Positions 33,160 through 43,129 of a stretch of 64,000 nucleotides of DNA are shown here, piece after piece. Below the pieces are notes generated by a model. That model was not told the DNA's origin and ran no database searches. It worked only from the letters and a program-made list of their open reading frames with translations. This DNA is from a virus. Both the position numbers and the translations under genes were made by a program. Where the stretch lies: the IMG/VR virus record IMGVR_UViG_3300013232_000047, positions 56,023 to 120,022 of that record, one strand, 5' to 3'. How positions within the stretch are numbered: the stretch's first letter is position 1; every line of letters starts with the position of its first letter.

Positions 33160-34635
33160 ATGGTAATCCTCTCTGAAAGTGGACGGCCAGTTCTGGCGAG
33201 TGATGGCGGGCATATCAGCCGCTTCACCGACATTCTGGAGTGGGGCTACCGTCTGGCGGAAACGCCTGTCGGCATCCCTGAGAAGAATCCTCGTGGCTTA
33301 TGGGAAGCGCGTGGCTGGAAAGAGTTCGTGGCGCACATGCCCGAGCACAAACGGCCTATCGCTGCCATCATGCTCGAAAATTGCCGGTCTCGCTTCGGTC
33401 GTCTCGACGAAGTGACCCGCACGACCTCACTCGGCACGTTCGATAAATGGATTTTCCCCATTATCGCCAACATGTCTGAGAATGATGTCATTGACCAGCT
33501 GATTGCCCTCCAGCCTATGGCTGGCCCGGTCTCTCAGATCGTCTACATGGACATCGTGACTGGTCGCCGAAAAGGTCGCACCCCGGCTGGTTCGCCCATG
33601 TGGCGTGCTCTGCAGGGCGCGGTTGACCGTGACGACGACGCTGATGAGCTGATTCAGGACGAGAGCGGAACCACAAACGGTTCTGGCGTACTCGTGCTGG
33701 AATGGACTCCTATCCGCGCCGGGACTGTTACAGGCACCGTGGGTGCAGCTTCTGTTGCTGACGATGGCAATGGTAACATGATCAACGTCGCTACAAACGC
33801 CGTTGTGGGTGCTATCATCTATCAGGGCACAGGCGCTGGTGCAGTTAACTTCACCTTGGGTGGTGGAGCATACCAGAACGCGGCTTACAGCCTGACGTAT
33901 GCGTTCAATTCTGAAGGCAACCTCGCCATTCAGGACTACGAAATGAAGCTCAGTTCGACTCCTGTCACCGCAAAGGTGATGAAGTTGAAAACGCTGTGGT
34001 CGGAAGAAGCCGATCAAAACTTGCAAGCGATGTATAACATCAAGGCGGAGAGCGTCCTGCTCAATGCTCTGACAAATGCGTTGCAGTACCAGAAACATCG
34101 TCAGGTCATCTTTGACTTGCGTGCCAAGGCTGATGCAGGTTTCGTGGTTTGGGACGCTATCGCCCCGGCGAGCGTTAACTACCAGACGCATAAGTTCTCC
34201 ATCATTGATGCCTTCGAGACTGCCTCGAACTTCATCTTTGGAAGTACAAACATGGTTGCTGGTAACTGGTTGCTGCTTGGTCTCCAAGCTGCGACTGTTG
34301 TGGCCACGCTGCCTCAGTTCGTACCCAAGAATGCTCGCACCCAAATGCAAGGAATTACTTATTTGGGTGACCTCGGAAACAAGAAGGTCTTTGCTGATCC
34401 TCACTATCCGAACAACGAGTTTCTGGTTGGTCACAAGGGCGATCAGTTCTTGACGACTGGCTACGTGTTGGCTGAGTACCAAAAGCTGTACACCACGCCT
34501 GATATCGTTCTGCCTGATTTCATCCATCAACGCGGGTTTGCTACGAGTTTCGCTCGTAAGATGATCAACGCGAAGATGTACTGTCGCGGCCTCATTCAGA
34601 ATAGTCCAACGGCATTCGGTCAAACTATTGGCTAA
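33160..34635 (+). CDS. major capsid protein (T4 gp23-like)
   Basis: AIMLEN, LQPMAGPVSQIVY, VTAKVMKLKTLWSEEADQNLQAMY, VFADPHY, FLVGHKG. Confidence 0.95.
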   Translation: MVILSESGRPVLASDGGHISRFTDILEWGYRLAETPVGIPEKNPRGLWEARGWKEFVAHMPEHKRPIAAIMLENCRSRFGRLDEVTRTTSLGTFDKWIFPIIANMSENDVIDQLIALQPMAGPVSQIVYMDIVTGRRKGRTPAGSPMWRALQGAVDRDDDADELIQDESGTTNGSGVLVLEWTPIRAGTVTGTVGAASVADDGNGNMINVATNAVVGAIIYQGTGAGAVNFTLGGGAYQNAAYSLTYAFNSEGNLAIQDYEMKLSSTPVTAKVMKLKTLWSEEADQNLQAMYNIKAESVLLNALTNALQYQKHRQVIFDLRAKADAGFVVWDAIAPASVNYQTHKFSIIDAFETASNFIFGSTNMVAGNWLLLGLQAATVVATLPQFVPKNARTQMQGITYLGDLGNKKVFADPHYPNNEFLVGHKGDQFLTTGYVLAEYQKLYTTPDIVLPDFIHQRGFATSFARKMINAKMYCRGLIQNSPTAFGQTIG

Positions 34636-34653
34636 TCTGTTTGGTAGAAATTC

Positions 34654-34686
34654 AAAAGCCCCCGGAGTTTCCTCCGGGGGCTTTTT
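34654..34686. terminator. bidirectional intrinsic terminator between capsid gene and array
   Basis: aaaa-gcccccggag-tttc-ctccgggggc-ttttt. Confidence 0.85.
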
Positions 34687-35801
34687 CGCTTATAACCTAT
34701 GGTGCTTTAACCCTGCACGGCTCGCTCTCACGTGTTGGTGCTCTCTACCTATCTGGCTCGCTCTGTAGTATCGGTGCTCTTGCTCGCTCTGGCTCGCTCA
34801 TCTATAATGCTACTTTCACTTATTTTGGCTCGCTCGTTCATCACGGTGCTCTCATGTGTGACGGCTCGCTCACATCTCGTGGTGCTCTTCGCGGCTGTGG
34901 CTCGCTCTTCAGTTTTGGTGCTCTCTCGGTCTCTGGCTCGCTTCTTTACGTTGGTGCTCTCTACCTATCTGGCTCGCTCTGTAGTATCGGTGCTCTTGCT
35001 GGTTATGGCTCGCTCGTAATCTTTGGTGCTCTCAGCTTCCCCGGCTCGCTCTATTTCATCGGTGCTCTCTGAAATTGCGGCTCGCTCAGTCGCTTTGGTA
35101 CTCTTTGTGGCCCCGGCTCGCTCTTTCATCTCGGTGCTCTACTTCGCAATGGCTCGCTTCTTTCCTGTGGTAATCTCTTAGGCTATGGCTCGCTCTATCG
35201 TTTTGGTGCTCTTCCTTTCAAAGGCTCGCTTCCGCATTTTGGTGCTCTCGGGTTCAATGGCTCGCTACTCCTGCTTGGTGCTCTTTGGCGATTTGGCTCG
35301 CTCTGTGTCTTTGGTGCTCTCCGACATGGCGGCTCGCTCGCGCTCTACGGTGCTCTTCAACGGATTGGCTCGCTCCTGCTGGTTGGTGCTCTCTGTCGGC
35401 ACGGCTCGCTCTACTGTTTTGGTGCTCTCACGGTCTCTGGCTCGCTTATTCTTTTTGGTGCTCTCCTGCCATTTGGCTCGCTATCTTACTGTGCTGCTAT
35501 TGTCATTTTTGGCTCGCTCGGGTTCTACGGTGCTCTATGCGTCCTTGGCTCGCTTTCCTGATGTGGTGCTCTAGCTTCTTGTGGCTCGCTCATCTATAAC
35601 GTTGCTGTCACCTTTTCTGGCTCGCTCAATCTTCGTGGTGCTCTCTGGCTTTGTGGCTCGCTCATCATCTCTGGTGCTCTCCCTTGAGGTGGCTCGCTCC
35701 TAGACTTTGGTGCTCTTCGTTTACGTGGCTCGCTCTCGCATCACGGTGCTCTCGTATGTAATGGCTCGCTTGCATTCAACGGTGCTCTACGTCTGTTTGG
35801 C
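34683..35801 (-). repeat. TIGR-type dual-repeat guide array 1 (31 units of 36 bp)
   Basis: On +: GGTGCTCT-N10-GGCTCGCT-N10, exact 36-bp period from 34701 to 35781, spacers variable, stop codons present; minus strand reads AGCGAGCC(A)...AGAGCACC(A). Confidence 0.92.
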
Positions 35802-36059
35802 TTAAATTCGTCGCCATTCTGCAATTGCTCGCATGTTGCTGGAAGGAACTTGGCTGGGTGCGTATCGACCCGTTTTTTCAATCAATTTGTCTTTTCTAGC
35901 TTGTCGAAAAACGCATCCCCAAGCGTTGGGATGCGCTGGATTTGCAGATTGGTTTTGATGTGCCTTAATGCGGATATCATCAGAGTTAAAGAGTGTTCCG
36001 ATGGGAATCCGGATGATGAGACGCATAATTTCCTCTTGCCATGCGCTGTGGTGTTGCAT
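35802..36059 (-). CDS. small putative winged-helix protein between the arrays
   Basis: HPNAWGCVF..A....LIEKTGRY..S...W motif seen in small phage proteins; TAA abuts array 1. Confidence 0.7.
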   Translation of the reverse strand: MQHHSAWQEEIMRLIIRIPIGTLFNSDDIRIKAHQNQSANPAHPNAWGCVFRQARKDKLIEKTGRYAPSQVPSSNMRAIAEWRRI

Positions 36060-36061
36060 GT

Positions 36062-36976
36062 CTAGCTCGCTTTCGCTTCTGTTGCTTGTCTGTCTAAAAG
36101 GTCATTCAGTTTAAGGACTAGGCGCTGTAGTGCCCTGTAGTCTTTCAGGTGGGTATAGTACTCTGTGACGATATTTTCAACGGTTGCTGTGTCAAAGGAC
36201 GTACCGTCGATGATCAGGTTTTTGTCACTGAATCCCCAGCGGCAGGATTTGATCTTTTGAACCTGCAGCGTAGCTTGTGCCTCTTTCAAAATCGTAGCCT
36301 TGTCTTGGACGAGCTTCTTGCCCGGCAGGATGATTCTGGACTGCCACGCGCTGATCTTGTCCTTGTCTACGGCCTGTTCCACTACGATCTTAGTCTTGCC
36401 ATCCGTTGTCACCTTTCTAGGGATAAGGAGAGTTTTGGTTTTAAGGATGTGATCCTGTGTATCGGCGGTGGCTTCTGTCATTATGACGCGCTGATAAAGC
36501 GGGCATCGGGACGTGAAAAACTGATAGCTTATACGGTTACGGCCAATCGCGTCTAAAGCACGCAGAAAACCTGCGTCGATGCTGGGACAGTTCCGAAGGA
36601 TATCAGCATCTATTTCAGCTTGTTGTCCGGACGGCGTGCGATCAATCCAAGCGACATAGAGAATTCCGGTAGCTGTCCATGCCAGATGTCCAAGGTTAAT
36701 GCCTCGTATGAACGCTTTTTTAAGTTCCCCGAGGTCAGTCGGAACTAGCAGACGCGATTTAACAAATTCATACGTCGTCACCGCGTCTGGTGTTGTTGTG
36801 AGCAATTCCTGTAAGGACTGCTTGTCGTTAGTTTTAGTGTTTGTGTTTGTTGGTTTAGTCATATATTCGCGCAACTCCTGTGTTTGTGCGCCCAGTCGGA
36901 ACTGGGCGCGGTTATGTTGCCGGGCCATCATCGACCCGCGCATTCTGGATATGGCGTTGTTTAATGCTTCGCTCAT
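36062..36976 (-). CDS. hypothetical protein between the arrays (alternative start 36862)
   Basis: 304-aa ORF; first ATG lies in the last unit of array 2; AGGAG precedes ATG 36862. Confidence 0.75.
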   Translation of the reverse strand: MSEALNNAISRMRGSMMARQHNRAQFRLGAQTQELREYMTKPTNTNTKTNDKQSLQELLTTTPDAVTTYEFVKSRLLVPTDLGELKKAFIRGINLGHLAWTATGILYVAWIDRTPSGQQAEIDADILRNCPSIDAGFLRALDAIGRNRISYQFFTSRCPLYQRVIMTEATADTQDHILKTKTLLIPRKVTTDGKTKIVVEQAVDKDKISAWQSRIILPGKKLVQDKATILKEAQATLQVQKIKSCRWGFSDKNLIIDGTSFDTATVENIVTEYYTHLKDYRALQRLVLKLNDLLDRQATEAKAS

Positions 36977-37436
36977 TTATTTTGGTGCTCTCTGGCTTTG
37001 TGGCTCGCTTGCGCATCTCGGTGCTCTCTTCCGCAATGGCTCGCTCTTTGGTTCTGGTGCTCTCATCCTGCTTGGCTCGCTCTGGTAGACTGGTGCTCTC
37101 TCCTGATGTGGCTCGCTCGTGTTGTTTGGTGCTCTCTGGTCCATTGGCTCGCTCTTTGTCCGTGGTGCTCTCCTTTGGTATGGCTCGCTTGCGTTCAACG
37201 GTGCTCTCCTTCACTCTGGCTCGCTTACATTCGGTGGTGCTCTCCTGCAATTCGGCTCGCTCCGCAATAGTGGTGCTCTCCTGCATTCTGGCTCGCTCTT
37301 ACGGTTTGGTGCTTTCGCCTTGCGCGGCTCGCTCTTTGGTTCTGGTGCTCTCATCCTGCTTGGCTCGCTCTGGTCAGTTGGTGCTCTCCGGTGTAATGGC
37401 TCGCTCATCGGTGTTGGTGCTCTCCCTAATCATGGC
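36966..37436 (-). repeat. TIGR-type dual-repeat guide array 2 (13 units of 36 bp)
   Basis: Same repeats, exact 36-bp period 36984-37416, starts at the stop codon of the Nop-like gene. Confidence 0.92.
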
Positions 37437-38579
37437 TTAAGCTGCATCTGCGTTACGCTGCGCATCTGTGTTAAGCTGTGCTTCTGCCTTATTTTTTCCC
37501 AACGGATCTTGCAGGTGGGCATGGCCCAGATGTGAGAAAACATAGGGCTTAGGAGGTTCTTTGTGGAAGTGTTGGCGGTACATTTCTTGTTGAAAATCAG
37601 CCAAGAAACGTTTTGCCACCCAGCGTAAAACTCGGTTGTGGATGTGGCCGGGAGCTAGCTTTCCCTGCTTAAGGATGGCGCGTTGCTCGTGATCGGGTAC
37701 CTCCCGTAACTTGGCAGCAGCTTGAGCGGCGTACAGTCCCGCTTCGTTACGAGCTGTTTCATAGGCTTTGCGCTCATCGTAGCTAAGGCTGTAGGTACTG
37801 GCGTCCACAAAACCTTTATTTTTACAGAATGAGTCACCGATGTAATGTTGAAGCACTTTGCACCGAGCATTCCAAGGACGCAGCGCCAAAGTTTTCACAA
37901 TCTGATCTCGTGTCAGCTTGACGCGTTTACCCTTGGCATCGGTGGTGGCGTATTTAAGCATCGAATGATAGTTGCGGTGAAACGTTTCAGACGCACGTGC
38001 CAGAATTTCCAGCGGGGTGCCCTTCTGGGCTTTTACCCATGCTTTTGATTTGTCAGCTCCCAACCACTCCTGCTGTGGATTTACTCCGAAAATGGACCAG
38101 ACATCGCCTGCGGTGAGGGCTTTTTCTGGATCAATGTAAGCCACCAGTGCGGCAGCAATTCCGTGCGAGATGCCTCTGAATTGCATCGCCCATCGGGCCA
38201 TGGGCTGTTGCTCGGCCCAGTAACGAACTGCGGTGTTAATCAGCTGTTCCTGCTTGGCAGCGTTTTTGTGGAACCATGTGAGGACTGCAGGCTGGCGCTG
38301 CTCTTCTTTTGGTTTGTGTTCCTCGCGTTTTTTAAGGCTTTTAACCTGATTCCCGGCGCTGATTCGCTTGTCCATGGCTTGCAGATATTCGCCTATCAAT
38401 ATCTTGGCTTCGAGCCGTGGCATTACGCGGACGTCTTCTGCCATGCCTTTCGGCATTTCAGTGTAGCCGATCGCTTCGGCTATTTTTTCCATGTCAGTGA
38501 GAAAGCAGCTCTCTGTGATTCTCACGTCCACTTTTCTTGGTTTGGTCTTGTCCACTTTTCTCTTAATTTTTTTATCCAT
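37437..38579 (-). CDS. Nop/IS110-like RNA-binding protein without nuclease domain (TasA-like)
   Basis: Coiled coil (EYLQAMDKRISAGNQ), HhH-like RGISHGIAAALVAYID, VWSIFG..P, PWNARCK, YDERKAYE, HIHNRVLRWVAKRFL; no RuvC DEDD or HNH seen; abuts array. Confidence 0.85.
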   Translation of the reverse strand: MDKKIKRKVDKTKPRKVDVRITESCFLTDMEKIAEAIGYTEMPKGMAEDVRVMPRLEAKILIGEYLQAMDKRISAGNQVKSLKKREEHKPKEEQRQPAVLTWFHKNAAKQEQLINTAVRYWAEQQPMARWAMQFRGISHGIAAALVAYIDPEKALTAGDVWSIFGVNPQQEWLGADKSKAWVKAQKGTPLEILARASETFHRNYHSMLKYATTDAKGKRVKLTRDQIVKTLALRPWNARCKVLQHYIGDSFCKNKGFVDASTYSLSYDERKAYETARNEAGLYAAQAAAKLREVPDHEQRAILKQGKLAPGHIHNRVLRWVAKRFLADFQQEMYRQHFHKEPPKPYVFSHLGHAHLQDPLGKNKAEAQLNTDAQRNADAA

Positions 38580-38619
38580 ATGTTTGAGGTATCTATAAGG
38601 TTTCTACGTTTGCGGGGTA

Positions 38620-38649
38620 AGACTACTACAGAAGTGTATACTCTGTCAA
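38620..38649 (-). promoter_or_regulatory. sigma70-type promoter for the tas-array operon
   Basis: TTGACA-18-TAGTCT. Confidence 0.6.
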
Positions 38650-38690
38650 ATAAAAGTTCACACAAAAATTTAGTGTGGGATTTAGCAGGC

Positions 38691-38725
38691 ACTCAGTCTT
38701 CTGTCCAAGTGACAGAAGACTGAGT
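38691..38725 (-). terminator. hairpin after GHKL gene
   Basis: actcagtcttctgtc-caagt-gacagaagactgagt, 15-bp perfect stem. Confidence 0.6.
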
Positions 38726-38739
38726 TGATCTGTTAAGCC

Positions 38740-40779
38740 TTATTGAATGCCTTTACCGGCTTTGATAGTTCCAAAAATGCCTTGCGCCGCCTGCTGCAAA
38801 GGCCGTATACCTGCTACGATACTGGTCAGTGCTTCAGGACTGAAAAGCTTGTCGCGCAGATGTTGACGTCCATTTTTGACGAATGTCCACAAGTGAGTGG
38901 TCGCTAACCTTACGTGCAGCTCTACCTCTTGGTAGAAGGCTTGTTCAAACGTGTCGAGCTGTTCGATTGGTACGCCATTCTTTTGTACTAGGCGCTGTTT
39001 GCATGCTTGCCATGCCGCCTGAATCATAGGGTGCCGCAGATGGATTTCAATTGTGGGACCTTGGTTTGGATTAAGGTCCGAGTTTTGCTGTAATGGCAAC
39101 GCATCCTTATCTTTTGGATCGTAGGGCTTGTCCACAGTTATGGCCTCTAGCAAGCCGTACGGAACTTTGAATAGTCTACCACTACCACGACCTGTTTCTT
39201 GTGAGGGAATACGGGGACCGCCCGTGCCAATCGGTATATATGCTTCACCCGCATTGTCATTGTCTAGCTCATGACGACGACGACGACGTGTTCCTTTGTA
39301 TCGCTCTACAAGGATAGTGTTCATGTAGGGCAAGTACTGTTCACCAACCCGGCGTAGTGTTTCATCGTCTATTTCTCCTCGCATGCTTGCGAAATCGGCA
39401 AAATAGTCGTTAATGGCATTCGTAATGAATTGAGGTCGTTTAGACTGGTAGCTGGCTGTCCACTCTTCGACAGGCAGGTCAGCACCACCTTTGATTCGGT
39501 CTTGGTAGTGCAGTGTTCGACGAGACGGGTCAGGAAAAACCTTCGCATCATCTGTGCTTAAAGGCTCCACTACAATAGCGAGCCGACGGCGTACGGTGTC
39601 TGTATTGACCCATGGAAATAGTGCTGTTTTACCACGAGCATGCGTCTGAACGCCGAAGGCTTCAATGATGCCGGGATGGGCTTCGTGTATGTAGGCAAAG
39701 ATTGGCACAGATGGTGCGTCTCCAGACTGGTAGCCTGTCCAGCTGTCCTGTCCGGGTTTGCTTTCACCTATGTTAGGAAAAAGATAAGTCGTTACGTTGG
39801 CAGAGACGGTGCTATCTCCGTTAATAAGGACTGTTTCTGTGAAGGGATCGGTGCTAGCCGTTTTTTGCTTACGACGTCCCATTTCAGCATAGTGCTGTAG
39901 GCATTTTTCCATGCCACAGACAGTCCGTTTGTTCACGCCCTTACTTTGTTGTGTTTTCGGCCAGTATTCCTTTTTGCGCCAATCTTTATCTGACTCCGGT
40001 GTCTGTACTGTGATAGTCACGCCTTCTGGCAATCTGTAAAAACGTGAGTTAAGGTATTCAGTTAAGGCGTACTTTGAATTTCCTTCAGATTCGCGGTGTG
40101 GATCACCTTTTACGGTATCGTCTTCACCGGTATCACCAAGCAGCACGATTACCGTACCATGCCCGGCTTCCCAGACAAAAGGTGGAATGACTTTCATCCA
40201 GTCTATTCCATCTACAGTGAAATCCTCAAAGTAGTCTGTTAAACGATCAAGAGGAAGGACAGCCAGTGCTTCATTTGCTGCTTCGAAAGTGGAAGTCCAA
40301 TCGGCTATAAAATCGTCTTCACCGCCTACTTCTTCAGTGACCAGTTCTCGTGCGCCGTAGTCTACGTTACCCTCTTTGGTTAGACCTCGGTGGAGCCACA
40401 TCATACTGGCTCGTTTTACACCCTCAGCATCTGTCACGACAGAGAGGACAACAACGCCGTTAAAGTTCCACGGAAGGATGCTGGTTTTTAGGCCGATGCC
40501 GTAGTTGCCGGTGATGTCTCCGATGGTTCGACCTGAACCTCCGTATTTGTTCAGAAACGCGGGCATTGCCTGTGGTGGCATGCCGCACCCGTCATCGGCA
40601 ATGATACGCCGATAGACTCCTTTTTGTTTTACGGCTTGCCATTCTATGCCGAACTGGATGTTTGTTGCTCCAGCTTGAATTGAATTGACGACGGCTTCCC
40701 GTGCCCATTGATGTGATTCTGATTGCGCGTAAGCCCGATTAACGTGGGTGTATACACCCACAGCTTGCATTGGTAGCAT
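38740..40779 (-). CDS. GHKL (HATPase_c/MORC-like) ATPase
   Basis: REAVVNSIQA, IADDGCGM, GNYGIGLK, GHGTVI; own TTGACA-17-TAAATG promoter near 40860. Confidence 0.85.
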   Translation of the reverse strand: MLPMQAVGVYTHVNRAYAQSESHQWAREAVVNSIQAGATNIQFGIEWQAVKQKGVYRRIIADDGCGMPPQAMPAFLNKYGGSGRTIGDITGNYGIGLKTSILPWNFNGVVVLSVVTDAEGVKRASMMWLHRGLTKEGNVDYGARELVTEEVGGEDDFIADWTSTFEAANEALAVLPLDRLTDYFEDFTVDGIDWMKVIPPFVWEAGHGTVIVLLGDTGEDDTVKGDPHRESEGNSKYALTEYLNSRFYRLPEGVTITVQTPESDKDWRKKEYWPKTQQSKGVNKRTVCGMEKCLQHYAEMGRRKQKTASTDPFTETVLINGDSTVSANVTTYLFPNIGESKPGQDSWTGYQSGDAPSVPIFAYIHEAHPGIIEAFGVQTHARGKTALFPWVNTDTVRRRLAIVVEPLSTDDAKVFPDPSRRTLHYQDRIKGGADLPVEEWTASYQSKRPQFITNAINDYFADFASMRGEIDDETLRRVGEQYLPYMNTILVERYKGTRRRRRHELDNDNAGEAYIPIGTGGPRIPSQETGRGSGRLFKVPYGLLEAITVDKPYDPKDKDALPLQQNSDLNPNQGPTIEIHLRHPMIQAAWQACKQRLVQKNGVPIEQLDTFEQAFYQEVELHVRLATTHLWTFVKNGRQHLRDKLFSPEALTSIVAGIRPLQQAAQGIFGTIKAGKGIQ

Positions 40780-40990
40780 TTGTTTTTATTTCCAGTCCCA
40801 CCGGTTGATTCCAGCAGGTCCGGTTAACCAACATTTATCAAAAGAGTTTACAGCTGTCAACAGCGGTCTGCACAAAAAATCAAAAATAAGAGTGCTTGAT
40901 TAAAACGTGTTGTTAGTGCCTGCGTGTTCGGCAGCCCTGAAGGAATGACAGGCTGAAAAGAGGCTAGTCTGTACCGACTTTTTATGGAAT

Positions 40991-41632
40991 CTACTTGAAT
41001 ATGCTATGCTTTTTAAGCTGTTTTATTTCGGTTTCCGTAGGCAGCTGAAACACCCACAAGTAGGAATGACATTTACGTGCGTGCTTTTGTACTTTGTGCT
41101 GAATTACGGGCCTGTTCTGTTGTAGAAGCACAAATAAGTCTTTTCCAAAAAATCCAAGCTGGATGCCCATTTCGTAGACTTCTATGTGTGACCAGCGCTG
41201 AAAGCTTGATTCTATTTCGTCTTGTGTTTTTACCCACATCTGGCTGCAGGGCTTAAGAATTCTGCGTGCTTCCGTCATGCTGTCAAAATAGAGCTGCATT
41301 ATGTCTTTGTGATACATGCCTGTAGTTGTGCTCGCGTTTTGGTAGCTGCTGTCAACAATCATTTGGCCCGGATTGTGTGCGTAGGGGAGATCCAGCACAA
41401 CTAGGTCAAACGTGGCGTTTGCGTGAGGCAAGTGTCGGCAATCCCAGTTTTTGCCGGGGCACGTGACTTTATCTGACGCATGCATTTCAACCGTGCTGAG
41501 GTCTACTTTTTTCCAAAATACACCTTTCCCCCAAGTTGGATCACATACGAGTGCGCCGGGTCGGAGATACATTGCAGCTACCTCTTTAAACAGGTCAGCA
41601 TTGGTACCTTGATAGCATGTGTACGTAGCCAT
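40991..41632 (-). CDS. SAM-dependent DNA methyltransferase-like protein
   Basis: DPTWGKGVFW, DLVVLDLPY, EARRILKP; TAATG coupling with the upstream ORF. Confidence 0.8.
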   Translation of the reverse strand: MATYTCYQGTNADLFKEVAAMYLRPGALVCDPTWGKGVFWKKVDLSTVEMHASDKVTCPGKNWDCRHLPHANATFDLVVLDLPYAHNPGQMIVDSSYQNASTTTGMYHKDIMQLYFDSMTEARRILKPCSQMWVKTQDEIESSFQRWSHIEVYEMGIQLGFFGKDLFVLLQQNRPVIQHKVQKHARKCHSYLWVFQLPTETEIKQLKKHSIFK

Positions 41633-42324
41633 TATAAGCGTGCTGTAAGTTGTTTGGCCATACTGTTCATCAACTGCGCTATTGTAAGCTTTTGGATACT
41701 TCCGTACCAAAAGTCAAAGATGAGGCGGCTTAGCTCCGCACCCATAAGCGTGTGCGTAGCTAACCAGCTTTTACAGAGTCTGTCATCTTTGTTGTCGCCT
41801 CTAACATAGAGCACGAATCTGACGTATGGACTCAAGTTATTCTTAAGCACAGTGCAATCGAACATGTCACACGCTGCCGTGGAGCTTGGTCTTTGTTTTT
41901 GGTGCAACTTGTGAATGTCTAAGGCTATCTGGAAGATAGAAGCGCATTCTTTTAGGTATCGCTCATGTACGGTAGTATGCGACACCAAAATTGTTTTCAC
42001 ACAGAGGGCGGCTTGACTGCCTGTGACATCCGTTGCAGTCGCGCTTATTTCTAAAAGTTCCCTGTAGCCTGCTATTTTTATGTCGGATAGACTTCCGTCC
42101 GGCATGTTAAATCTGAAAGGGACTCTGCCTTTTTGAGCGGTGAGCTTAGAGTACCTGAACGTAACGTTGTGACCATTACACCGAACGTCTCTTAGGTTGT
42201 TAACAAAAGCGCTGTTCAGCATGTCTAATCCGCCGTTATGCGCACGGTTGCATTGGCTCTGCCTGTCTTGTGCTCCTCCTGTGGTATTAGCAAGCGGCGA
42301 TTCTTCTGTCAGTGTCGTATGCAT
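41632..42324 (-). CDS. hypothetical protein between two methyltransferases
   Basis: 230-aa ORF, coupled stop/start. Confidence 0.6.
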   Translation of the reverse strand: MHTTLTEESPLANTTGGAQDRQSQCNRAHNGGLDMLNSAFVNNLRDVRCNGHNVTFRYSKLTAQKGRVPFRFNMPDGSLSDIKIAGYRELLEISATATDVTGSQAALCVKTILVSHTTVHERYLKECASIFQIALDIHKLHQKQRPSSTAACDMFDCTVLKNNLSPYVRFVLYVRGDNKDDRLCKSWLATHTLMGAELSRLIFDFWYGSIQKLTIAQLMNSMAKQLTARL

Positions 42325-43129
42325 ACATTCTTTCTTTCGTTTCCATGTGAGCGTTTAATCTCTCCACGCATTTCAGGAAGAACGCGCTTTTAATTTCTGC
42401 ACCTGTAAAATTTCGATTTAAATCGCTGCATGCAATAAGAGTGGTTCCGCTGCCCATATGCGGATCGCACACGTGGCCATGAGGAGGGCACCATTTGCGA
42501 ACAACGCGTTGTGCCAGCTTGGTGGGAAAAGGCGCATTATGCCAATTCCTTTCCTTTGGAATTGTCCATAAGTTGCTGCGGCTGTCTGAGTCACCATCAG
42601 CTGCGTTGTCAAAATAATATCGGTAGTCTTCAGGTCGTTTGAAGACATACAAAAATTCAGTATGCCCCCAGAGCTGTGTTTTATCGTGATTATGCGTACT
42701 TTTTCTGTTCCAAATTACGCGATCAACCAGTGTTAGTTCTTTTGGGAACCAAGTCTCTGGCGAAATCATTCGGCGATTTTTTCTTCTATCCTTATGATTG
42801 TAAACGACTACGCCGCTAGGCAGCAGATGCTTTGAACACCAGATTAAGAAGTTACGCTGTTGTTCTTGGTATTCTCCTTCAGGCAGGCTGTCTGCATAGT
42901 CAGTGACACCTCGAAAACTTTTCGGATCAAAGATGCCGATACTGCGTAACCCTTTGATTTTAGCTGGCCCACTGGAACCTATGTTGTACGGCGGCGATGT
43001 GAATATGAGGTTAAATCGGCCAGTTAGTGCAAGGCTGTAATCAGCGTTGTACATCTCAGCCGTAAAGTCTTTGTAAGCGTGAATCTGCTTTTCATACCTA
43101 CTTGCTATTTTTATCGTATTTGTATGCAT
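42287..43129 (-). CDS. N4-C/N6-A DNA methyltransferase (beta class)
   Basis: FTSPPYN, H.APFP..L, DPHMGSGTT, GAEI. Confidence 0.92.
   Translation of the reverse strand: MHTNTIKIASRYEKQIHAYKDFTAEMYNADYSLALTGRFNLIFTSPPYNIGSSGPAKIKGLRSIGIFDPKSFRGVTDYADSLPEGEYQEQQRNFLIWCSKHLLPSGVVVYNHKDRRKNRRMISPETWFPKELTLVDRVIWNRKSTHNHDKTQLWGHTEFLYVFKRPEDYRYYFDNAADGDSDSRSNLWTIPKERNWHNAPFPTKLAQRVVRKWCPPHGHVCDPHMGSGTTLIACSDLNRNFTGAEIKSAFFLKCVERLNAHMETKERMYAYDTDRRIAAC

Follow-up and report, generated by a model that had tools for sequence, protein, structure and literature searches.

A probable dual-repeat TIGR-TasA locus with 44 array units in a large tailed phage

The DNA analysed here, called the window throughout, comprises the 64,000 nucleotides (nt) at positions 56,023 to 120,022 of virus record IMGVR_UViG_3300013232_000047; the whole record measures 120,022 b and is estimated to be 53% complete. 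On its minus strand a putative tasA gene, two arrays of a 36-bp unit and two open reading frames (ORFs) adjoin one another in a locus that is interpreted below as a TIGR-Tas system. From 5' to 3' on that strand these are tasA (37437..38579; 380 aa, a Nop-domain Tas protein without nuclease domain as judged by sequence, fold and family model); TIGR array 2 (36969..37438; 13 units), overlapping the tasA stop codon and entering the next gene with its terminal truncated repeat; ORF304 (36062..36976; 304 aa, a small family, recognised as an ORF and through homologue searches); ORF85 (35802..36059; 85 aa, phrog_27658), with its stop codon in the truncated first repeat of the array that follows; and TIGR array 1 (34686..35803; 31 units). 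ORF304 and ORF85 fill the space between the arrays without spare bases. Array 1 ends at a hairpin of 14 pairs (34654..34685; assigned to neither strand), preceded by an A-run and followed by a U-run (-32.1 kcal/mol, z = -5.9, 0/200 shuffles as stable), which bears out the terminator that an earlier note on this DNA had placed there.

Both arrays could be parsed in phase on the minus strand, array 2 into 13 units (37438..36969) and array 1 into 31 units (35803..34686), with a period of exactly 36 bp across all 44 units and without a single insertion or deletion; the earlier note had given the same counts and the same unbroken period. Tandem Repeats Finder returned periods of 36, 72 and 108 over both stretches. 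The unit reads AGCGAGCC-R-N8-G-AGAGCACC-R-N8-G and is best notated as 10+8+10+8, that is, G-AGCGAGCC-R, eight free bases, G-AGAGCACC-R, eight free bases. The base after AGCGAGCC is A in 34 units, G in 9 and T in 1 (n = 44), the base after AGAGCACC is A in 32 and G in 12 (n = 44), and the base that ends each spacer is biased to G (30/44 after the first spacer, 32/44 after the second). A unit of 8-base repeats and 10-base spacers had been proposed; the 8-base words do lie ten bases apart, but in each spacer only about 8 nt vary fully, which is also the case in the SpTIGR array of Salicola phage CGphi29. Likewise, the 44 units agree with the 44 or so guides counted earlier, of which 43 are distinct, and at least three more lie in a third array outside the window.

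AGCGAGCC is identical in all 42 full copies; the first unit of each array (2/44) has a 5'-truncated copy of it (..AAGCC). AGAGCACC is exact in 37 of the 44 units and drifts in the other seven, namely to AAAGCACC (twice), ACAGCAAC, ATAGCAGC, AGATTACC, AGAGTACC and AAAGTAGC, so the invariance of the one repeat and the drift of the other had been described correctly. Both repeats read (G)AG....CC(A/G), with a common box D start and a common box C end. The array strand of the 120,022-b record has 48 copies of the word AGCGAGCC, 42 of them in the two arrays and three in the third. At the 5' ends of the arrays, the stop codon of the preceding gene lies inside the truncated repeat (cTTAAGCC for tasA, tTTAAGCC for ORF85); at the 3' ends, the arrays close with 3'-truncated copies (AGCGAagc in array 2, AGCGAaaa in array 1). 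The terminal AGCGAagc of array 2 provides codons 2-3 of ORF304 (ATG AGC GAA GC), and array 2 thus runs into ORF304 and not into a terminator, while array 1 runs straight into the hairpin.

Truncated edge repeats at array ends and a terminator agree with the description by Faure et al. (PMC12045711). On these sequence features AGCGAGCC is assigned as the edge repeat and AGAGCACC as the loop repeat, in agreement with the division into edge and loop repeats suggested earlier. A GCGAGCCA core is present in the SpTIGR, TaTIGR and ParTIGR arrays of Table S1 of PMC12045711; that this core is the edge repeat in those three arrays is our own reading of the structure text. In the same table the edge core is AAGCGAGCCA in the Salicola phage array and TGCGAGCCA in the TasR arrays, and according to the structure paper TasR repeats start with UG and end with CCA. 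An Rfam scan gave zero matches above the gathering thresholds.

The third array has the same strand and the same two repeats and lies at the start of the record (G000:C1:1-134), 56 kb before the window; it holds three full units and one partial unit, and the record's end truncates it. Its start coincides with the stop codon (TAA-AAGCC) of a lipoprotein-like 124-aa ORF (G000:C1:506..132), which has a signal peptide and a lipobox-like LTGC.

The 380-aa protein scored 125.4 bits with the NCBIfam model NF052498.1, TIGR_Tas_endo (curated cut-off 100; E = 3.1e-36); the title of this model is 'TIGR-Tas system RNA-guided endonuclease', although the protein has no nuclease domain. Among PDB sequences, phmmer found TasH (21kl_A, E = 1.2e-6) and TasR (9mty_A, E = 2.3e-4). 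The AlphaFold model, built with the homologue alignment, has a mean predicted local distance difference test score (pLDDT) of 86.8 and a predicted template modelling score of 0.80; Foldseek ranks 1-10 in the PDB are all TasH or TasR, with probability 1.00. With VIA-align, Z was 19.1 to TasH 9vzx_A (232 residues aligned, root-mean-square deviation 3.9) and 17.3 to TasR 9mty_B (194 aligned, deviation 2.3); over TasH and TasR as a whole Z was 17.3-19.1 over 194-235 residues, the first unrelated match followed at Z 7.5, and the IS621 and ISCro4 recombinases gave Z 13.9-14.4. The TIGR-Tas reading of the earlier note and its Nop-like protein are both supported by these matches. PHROGs places the protein in phrog_4285, 'transposase' (E = 6.8e-25). 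Pfam gave zero domains at E <= 1, and the fold alignments start at residue 51-55, opposite TasH residues 64-66, past the HNH part of TasH; the protein therefore has no HNH or RuvC domain, and on sequence and model together it is best regarded as TasA, the nuclease-free Tas.

The first ~50 residues of the model are largely poorly ordered and without match (residues 1-30 mostly so). A predicted coiled coil follows (helices 55-86 and 98-123), then a helical insertion of ~60 residues (~173-232) that is present in 12 of the 31 homologues, and a C-terminal loop that holds Y346 and H353. The HMMER alignment sets these two residues opposite Y289 and H296 of SpTasH, the catalytic residues for maturation of its pre-tigRNA (PMC13421893); a Tyr/His dyad is typical of dual-repeat systems (preprint 10.64898/2026.09.09.750476), and this C-terminal processing loop, a dual-repeat feature absent in stem-loop systems, was found in TasA by alignment. 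The histidine is conserved in 31/31 homologues.

The 2025 publication of the family counted 20,096 tas loci (PMC12045711), and 6,685 arrays were annotated later. Among 5.8 billion proteins searched, 31 including the query were recovered, the closest being 64, 54, 45 and 48% identical; GenBank phages gave zero matches by DNA (8 kb, megablast) or by protein, and three TasA peptides were without match in the available part of supplementary Table S1 of PMC12045711. A scan of viral contigs with the family alignment yielded 80 loci, the best of 550 confirmed stretches, with relatives 29-37% identical. A region with a period of 34-37 bp lies within 1.5 kb of the gene in 67 of these 80 viral loci (period 36 in 59; 13 without such a region), as seen by a periodicity detector run without a control of unrelated DNA; a separate word-chain detector found arrays of period 34-37 adjoining the gene in most of the 80. 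In 30 relatives hand-picked for a strong array signal, most consensus units have two repeats that start with GA or AG and end with CA; in L022, L057 and L065 both repeats end with CG, so that the two ends covary. The structure paper attributes edge/loop covariation to a symmetric protein dimer.

Three sequencing runs of DNA contain small shares of the stretch (0.05-0.06). In one of them, run X1 from a freshwater-sediment metagenome, contigs ~87-93% identical cover tasA, ORF304 and ORF85 (window 34600-38750); of the arrays there are only short fragments in which distant units are joined, and although the repeat words are the same, the letters between them differ. This one run, with its fragmented contigs, hints that the spacers may differ in a close relative.

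The spacers of the two arrays are related to one another. Among the 88 spacers there are five exact pairs (0.08 expected) and ten pairs that differ by at most one base (1.25 expected), and 0/500 shuffles reach either value; some pairs connect both arrays and some connect an A position with a B position of the unit. A 39-nt block spanning the edge repeat recurs 216 bp apart in array 1 (window 34744-35014), array 2 repeats one whole unit at a distance of 288 bp (window 37045-37405), and the spacer ACAAAGCCAG is common to both arrays; window 35626-35698 likewise holds duplicated spacers. The simplest reading is that duplication and reshuffling made the arrays grow. On the transcribed strand, purines make up 63% of the spacer cores, compared with 50% of that strand over the window; no such bias was seen in the 30 hand-picked relatives (mean 0.54 in the variable columns, 0.54 for their loci).

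With a probability of about 0.88, the locus is read as a dual-repeat TIGR-TasA system of a large tailed phage, with 36-nt guides and with binding of DNA in place of cutting; it has every defining feature of such a system that can be judged from sequence. Beyond the observed anatomy of the arrays, the family and fold of the protein, the conserved dyad and the co-occurrence of family and arrays, we infer RNA processing and DNA binding at this locus from published relatives. One minus-strand transcript would run from upstream of tasA through array 2, ORF304, ORF85 and array 1 to the hairpin terminator. TasA would dimerise via its coiled coil, one protomer sitting on the edge repeat (G-AGCGAGCC-R) and the other on the loop repeat (G-AGAGCACC-R), with the common AG...CC-R ends serving as box D and box C. 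The Y346/H353 pair would cut the precursor inside each of the 42 full edge repeats, which would give up to 44 guides of 36 nt, and these would steer the dimer to sites of 16-18 bp. Binding instead of cutting is expected because TasA lacks a nuclease domain; the complex would bind and bend the site without cutting it and so block transcription or replication of the target, as a repressor or blocker. In the relatives, the RNAs bound by TasA, TasH and TasR are 36 nt long, with both ends falling midway through edge repeats (PMC12045711); spacers A and B pair with opposite DNA strands; the precursor of the SpTasH guides is cut by SpTasH itself (PMC13421893); and binding of target DNA with reversible repression of transcription is described for two dead TasR proteins and for one TasA, in a guide-dependent manner for the latter (preprint 10.64898/2026.09.09.750476). 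No target was found in the 120 kb of this phage, so that the likeliest candidates are competing mobile elements or genes of the host.

Several observations weigh against this reading. The CC of box C is missing from three of the loop repeats (ACAGCAAC, ATAGCAGC and AAAGTAGC), and guides with these repeats may be defective. Position 346 of the dyad is Y in 22 of the 31 homologues and F in the other nine, so that either the tyrosine is dispensable or the alignment is loose there, and the C-terminal loop is modelled with low confidence (pLDDT <50 at residues 347-355). The promoter that the earlier note gave to the operon was not recovered: a consensus scan returned zero sigma-70-like sites upstream of tasA, and the promoter-like pair visible by eye (38620..38649, minus strand; TTGACA at 38649..38644, 18 nt, TAGTCT) escapes that scan because its second hexamer matches at only 3/6 positions. 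The sequencing runs listed as containing the stretch include zero RNA runs, and the precedent for repression by TasA is one preprint on a distant relative, apparently of the stem-loop type. Zero targets were found in the phage record and the viral sequences searched, and biological activity is therefore not arguable from targets.

In the target searches, the expected level was set by re-paired spacers. The target strand probably reads spacer A + revcomp(spacer B), the mirror of the revcomp(B)+A arrangement given earlier; this is our own derivation, made because the published 8-nt 3' overhangs and the 'C-5 rule' fit it. Over the 120,022-b record, 18-nt self-targets with at most two mismatches numbered one for A+revcomp(B) and zero for revcomp(A)+B (0.35 expected for each), and those with three mismatches two and five (5.1 and 4.75 expected); with 16-nt cores of 47 guides there were zero matches at <=1 mismatch, and two and two at two mismatches (3.27 and 3.9 expected). 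The single match belongs to the guide of unit 35122, which agrees at 16 of 18 contiguous bases with G000:C1:239-256 in the A+revcomp(B) arrangement, inside the lipoprotein-like ORF and ~105 bp upstream of the third array; at one match against 0.35 expected, it may be due to chance.

The scan of the viral collection covered the only guide that occurs twice (units 37369 and 37081). As A+revcomp(B) this guide matched four viral contigs that are 100% identical over 218 nt and thus represent one virus, with a perfect 18-base match at G001:C1:303912-303929 of a 364,554-b virus record; in the mirror arrangement it matched zero viral contigs. All 47 guides together gave one match to that record at two mismatches (0.75 in re-paired controls) and 16 and 20 at three mismatches (12.05 and 13.75 in controls), and its G+C content is 36%, against 49% in this phage. 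With the other 45 guides at control level and the G+C contents different, the match to this virus was taken as chance. The authors who described the family note that such short spacers yield many false matches.

Neither embedded gene has a recognisable function. The ORF304 family comprises about six known proteins; ORF304 has zero matches in Pfam (E <= 1), NCBIfam, PADLOC and PHROGs, and in the protein atlas only unnamed phage clusters. An exhaustive HMMER search with it found eight proteins, four of them credible relatives; among these relatives no Pfam family scored above cut-off, and the two sub-threshold matches at E <= 0.1 are neither of them ParB. The ORF304 profile found nothing below E = 1.1 among PDB sequences, and the AlphaFold 2 model (pLDDT 53) reached a best Z of 4.9 among 48,161 chains, none reaching Z 5. 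ORF85 has zero Pfam matches at E <= 1 and falls in unnamed clusters of the protein atlas, with weak winged-helix leads (scores 0.77-0.79).

These two genes enter the most elaborate of the alternatives, a composite system in which ORF304, and perhaps ORF85, would be dedicated partners or effectors of this TasA subclade, comparable to the role proposed for the ParB-like TasParB in other TasA operons, with translation coupled to guide processing via the start and stop codons in the truncated edge repeats. We regard this as possible, with the odds clearly against it. It would account for the start of ORF304 (ATG-AGC-GAA-GC), which is itself the terminal truncated edge repeat, and published TasParB operons do have arrays between genes. 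The closest homologue of ORF304, P0033 (56% identity), has the same MSEALN start and apparently lies beside P0002, the closest Tas (64% identity): each comes from a 6,552-b contig of the same source, from which we infer one shared contig. The metagenome locus L082 (Tas 47% identical) repeats the order tas, array, ORF304-like gene, the last (25% identity over 151 aa, E = 5e-8) beginning right after a truncated AGCGA. ORF85-like proteins (phrog_27658) occur in 5 of the 80 viral tas loci (L050:2235-2588, L059:5368-5721, L070:5608-5925, L017:10891-11229, L076:1671-1937), directly upstream of tas in L050, L059 and L070, of which the first two are near-identical phages (Tas 98%). The ORF304 profile, however, found nothing at E <= 1 among the ORFs of the 80 viral loci, so that its link to tas is confined to a few close relatives, in which a common gene order could reflect shared descent; ORF304 has no known domain or fold pointing to a role; and other loci with multiple arrays have ordinary-looking phage genes between them, for instance L022 with five arrays over 9 kb, so that arrays may simply occupy intergenic space. 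A narrower form of the idea is rather doubtful: the TasA subclade with the N-terminal extension and the 60-residue insertion would form a three-gene unit with ORF304 and ORF85 as new TIGR accessory proteins. As codons 2-3 of ORF304 are part of the terminal truncated edge repeat, the mRNA of these proteins would open with a last guide unit left unprocessed, and TasA on this leader would couple production of its partners to guide loading. If true, ORF304 and ORF85 would add a second kind of TasA partner to TasParB, and it would be the first case in which guide processing controls the translation of a neighbouring gene.

The remaining alternatives concern the purpose, the state or the very nature of the guides. 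In a self-regulatory reading, the guides would repress genes of the phage itself and so time its life cycle, their targets lying in the half or so of the genome that is missing from the record. The preprint 10.64898/2026.09.09.750476 names regulation of the viral life cycle among possible roles, and both the estimated completeness of 53% and the 16/18 match in the ORF preceding the third array would suit this reading; the numbers of self-matches over the 120 kb, which stay near those of re-paired spacers, and the zero matches of 16-nt cores at <=1 mismatch make it unlikely. A relic, TIGR-Tas by descent and no longer working, would explain the seven drifted loop repeats, three of them altered in box C, and the want of a target, yet the tasA frame is open and full length with 18/18 invariant family positions kept, the 42 full edge repeats are all exact, the 36-bp phase is intact over 44 units, and contigs of the ~90% identical relative retain the genes; decay is thus very improbable. 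Hardly any credence is left for a locus without guide RNAs of this kind, be it an IS110-type transposase with its bridge RNA, a CRISPR array, a translated 12-residue repeat or protein-binding DNA iterons. Such explanations could draw on the 'transposase' name of phrog_4285, on the presence of PF02371 in some homologues, on the likeness of the fold to the IS621 recombinase (Z 14) and on a period that equals 12 codons. The NCBIfam Tas model is nevertheless passed above its cut-off, and Pfam shows no DEDD/RuvC catalytic domain. An IS110-family transposase was rejected, since only the C-terminal RNA-binding part of IS621 aligns (residues 125-320) and 44 units stand against one bridge RNA. CRISPR-Cas was rejected too: the repeats are 8-10 nt long and of two alternating kinds, against ~25-36 nt (PMC12045711), and PADLOC models matched 0 of the 4 proteins scanned (tasA, ORF304, ORF85 and the 679-aa gene upstream), in line with the absence of cas genes stated in the earlier note. 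Stop codons, finally, occur in all six frames of both arrays (per frame 14-22 in array 1 and 3-7 in array 2 on the minus strand, 3-7 and 1-3 on the plus strand), so there is no translated 12-residue repeat.

The host of the locus is a large tailed phage. Among the neighbours are a head maturation protease gene and the gene for the major head protein (33160..34635, plus strand; phrog_138, E = 2.1e-26); the latter converges with the array operon, and the hairpin between the two (34654..34685) is probably bidirectional. On the other side, a strong hairpin without U-tail (38691..38725, minus strand; -29.3 kcal/mol, z = -5.95, 0/200 shuffles as stable) lies directly 3' of the gene for a 679-aa protein and may mark the end of its transcript. 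This protein, encoded upstream of tasA on the minus strand, has a faint GHKL-ATPase likeness (MutL and Topo VI-B N-terminal models, E ~2e-3, far under the cut-offs), and past its gene lie two DNA methyltransferase genes (40991..41710, phrog_24333; 42287..43129, phrog_67); the minus strand of window 38740-43129 may be an accessory or anti-restriction block beside the TIGR operon. Elsewhere in the family, four to seven array segments are found across 7-9 kb in each of the viral loci L022, L028, L044 and L015, separated by genes of 100-650 aa, so that an array following the stop codon of one phage gene or another may be a common arrangement in this Tas family.

The published papers leave open the natural targets, the acquisition of spacers and the partner proteins of nuclease-free TasA in phages. 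A guide-rich locus (44 units and a third array) in a large phage with known neighbour genes is useful here: its record of spacer duplication and A/B shuffling bears on how arrays grow without Cas1/Cas2-like genes, and the small set of conserved embedded genes provides candidate partners. Modest leads come from the embedded genes and the duplicated spacers. As a system the locus holds nothing categorically new; it is a well-preserved, guide-rich example of the known TIGR-TasA family.

Its nearest described counterpart is SpTIGR-TasH of Salicola phage CGphi29 (PDB 9W03, 9W04, 21KL; PMC12045711, PMC13421893), which is likewise phage-borne, with a 36-nt dual-repeat unit, the AGCGAGCC core in the first repeat and ~8 variable bases per spacer. 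The SpTIGR array reads AAGCGAGCCA-N8-AAGACAACCA-N8 (Table S1, PMC12045711), its second repeat, AAGACAACCA, being similar to the loop repeat here, GAGAGCACCR. [quoted passage not shown] By description, the locus resembles those of FpTasA (Flavonifractor plautii) and MbTasA, in which a solo Nop-domain Tas protein accompanies guide arrays; FpTasA binds 36-nt RNAs (PMC12045711), and MbTasA binds target DNA and represses transcription without cutting (preprint 10.64898/2026.09.09.750476). MbTasA is apparently of the stem-loop type, unlike the dual-repeat locus here, and the 44 units in the window compare with the 5-15 per array that are most common (PMC12045711).

TasA-TasParB operons share the combination of tasA with another gene and dual-repeat arrays upstream, downstream and between, with 10-nt repeats; ORF304 showed no ParB similarity in Pfam or in the profile search of PDB sequences, and its model is too poor (pLDDT 53) to judge the fold. 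The IS110 recombinases IS621 and ISCro4 (PDB 8WT6, 9T56) have in common with TasA a Nop-like RNA-binding domain (Z 13.9-14.4, 176 residues) and a two-part guide logic; TasA differs in lacking a DEDD domain, and the locus in having many short guides where those elements have a single bridge RNA; element ends are not apparent here. Nuclease-free CRISPR systems of mobile elements (type IV, type V-M), an analogy drawn by Faure et al. (PMC12045711), would share with this locus the proposed principle that guided binding blocks a competitor without cutting; proteins, guide architecture and strand reading are unrelated, and the likeness is one of function only.

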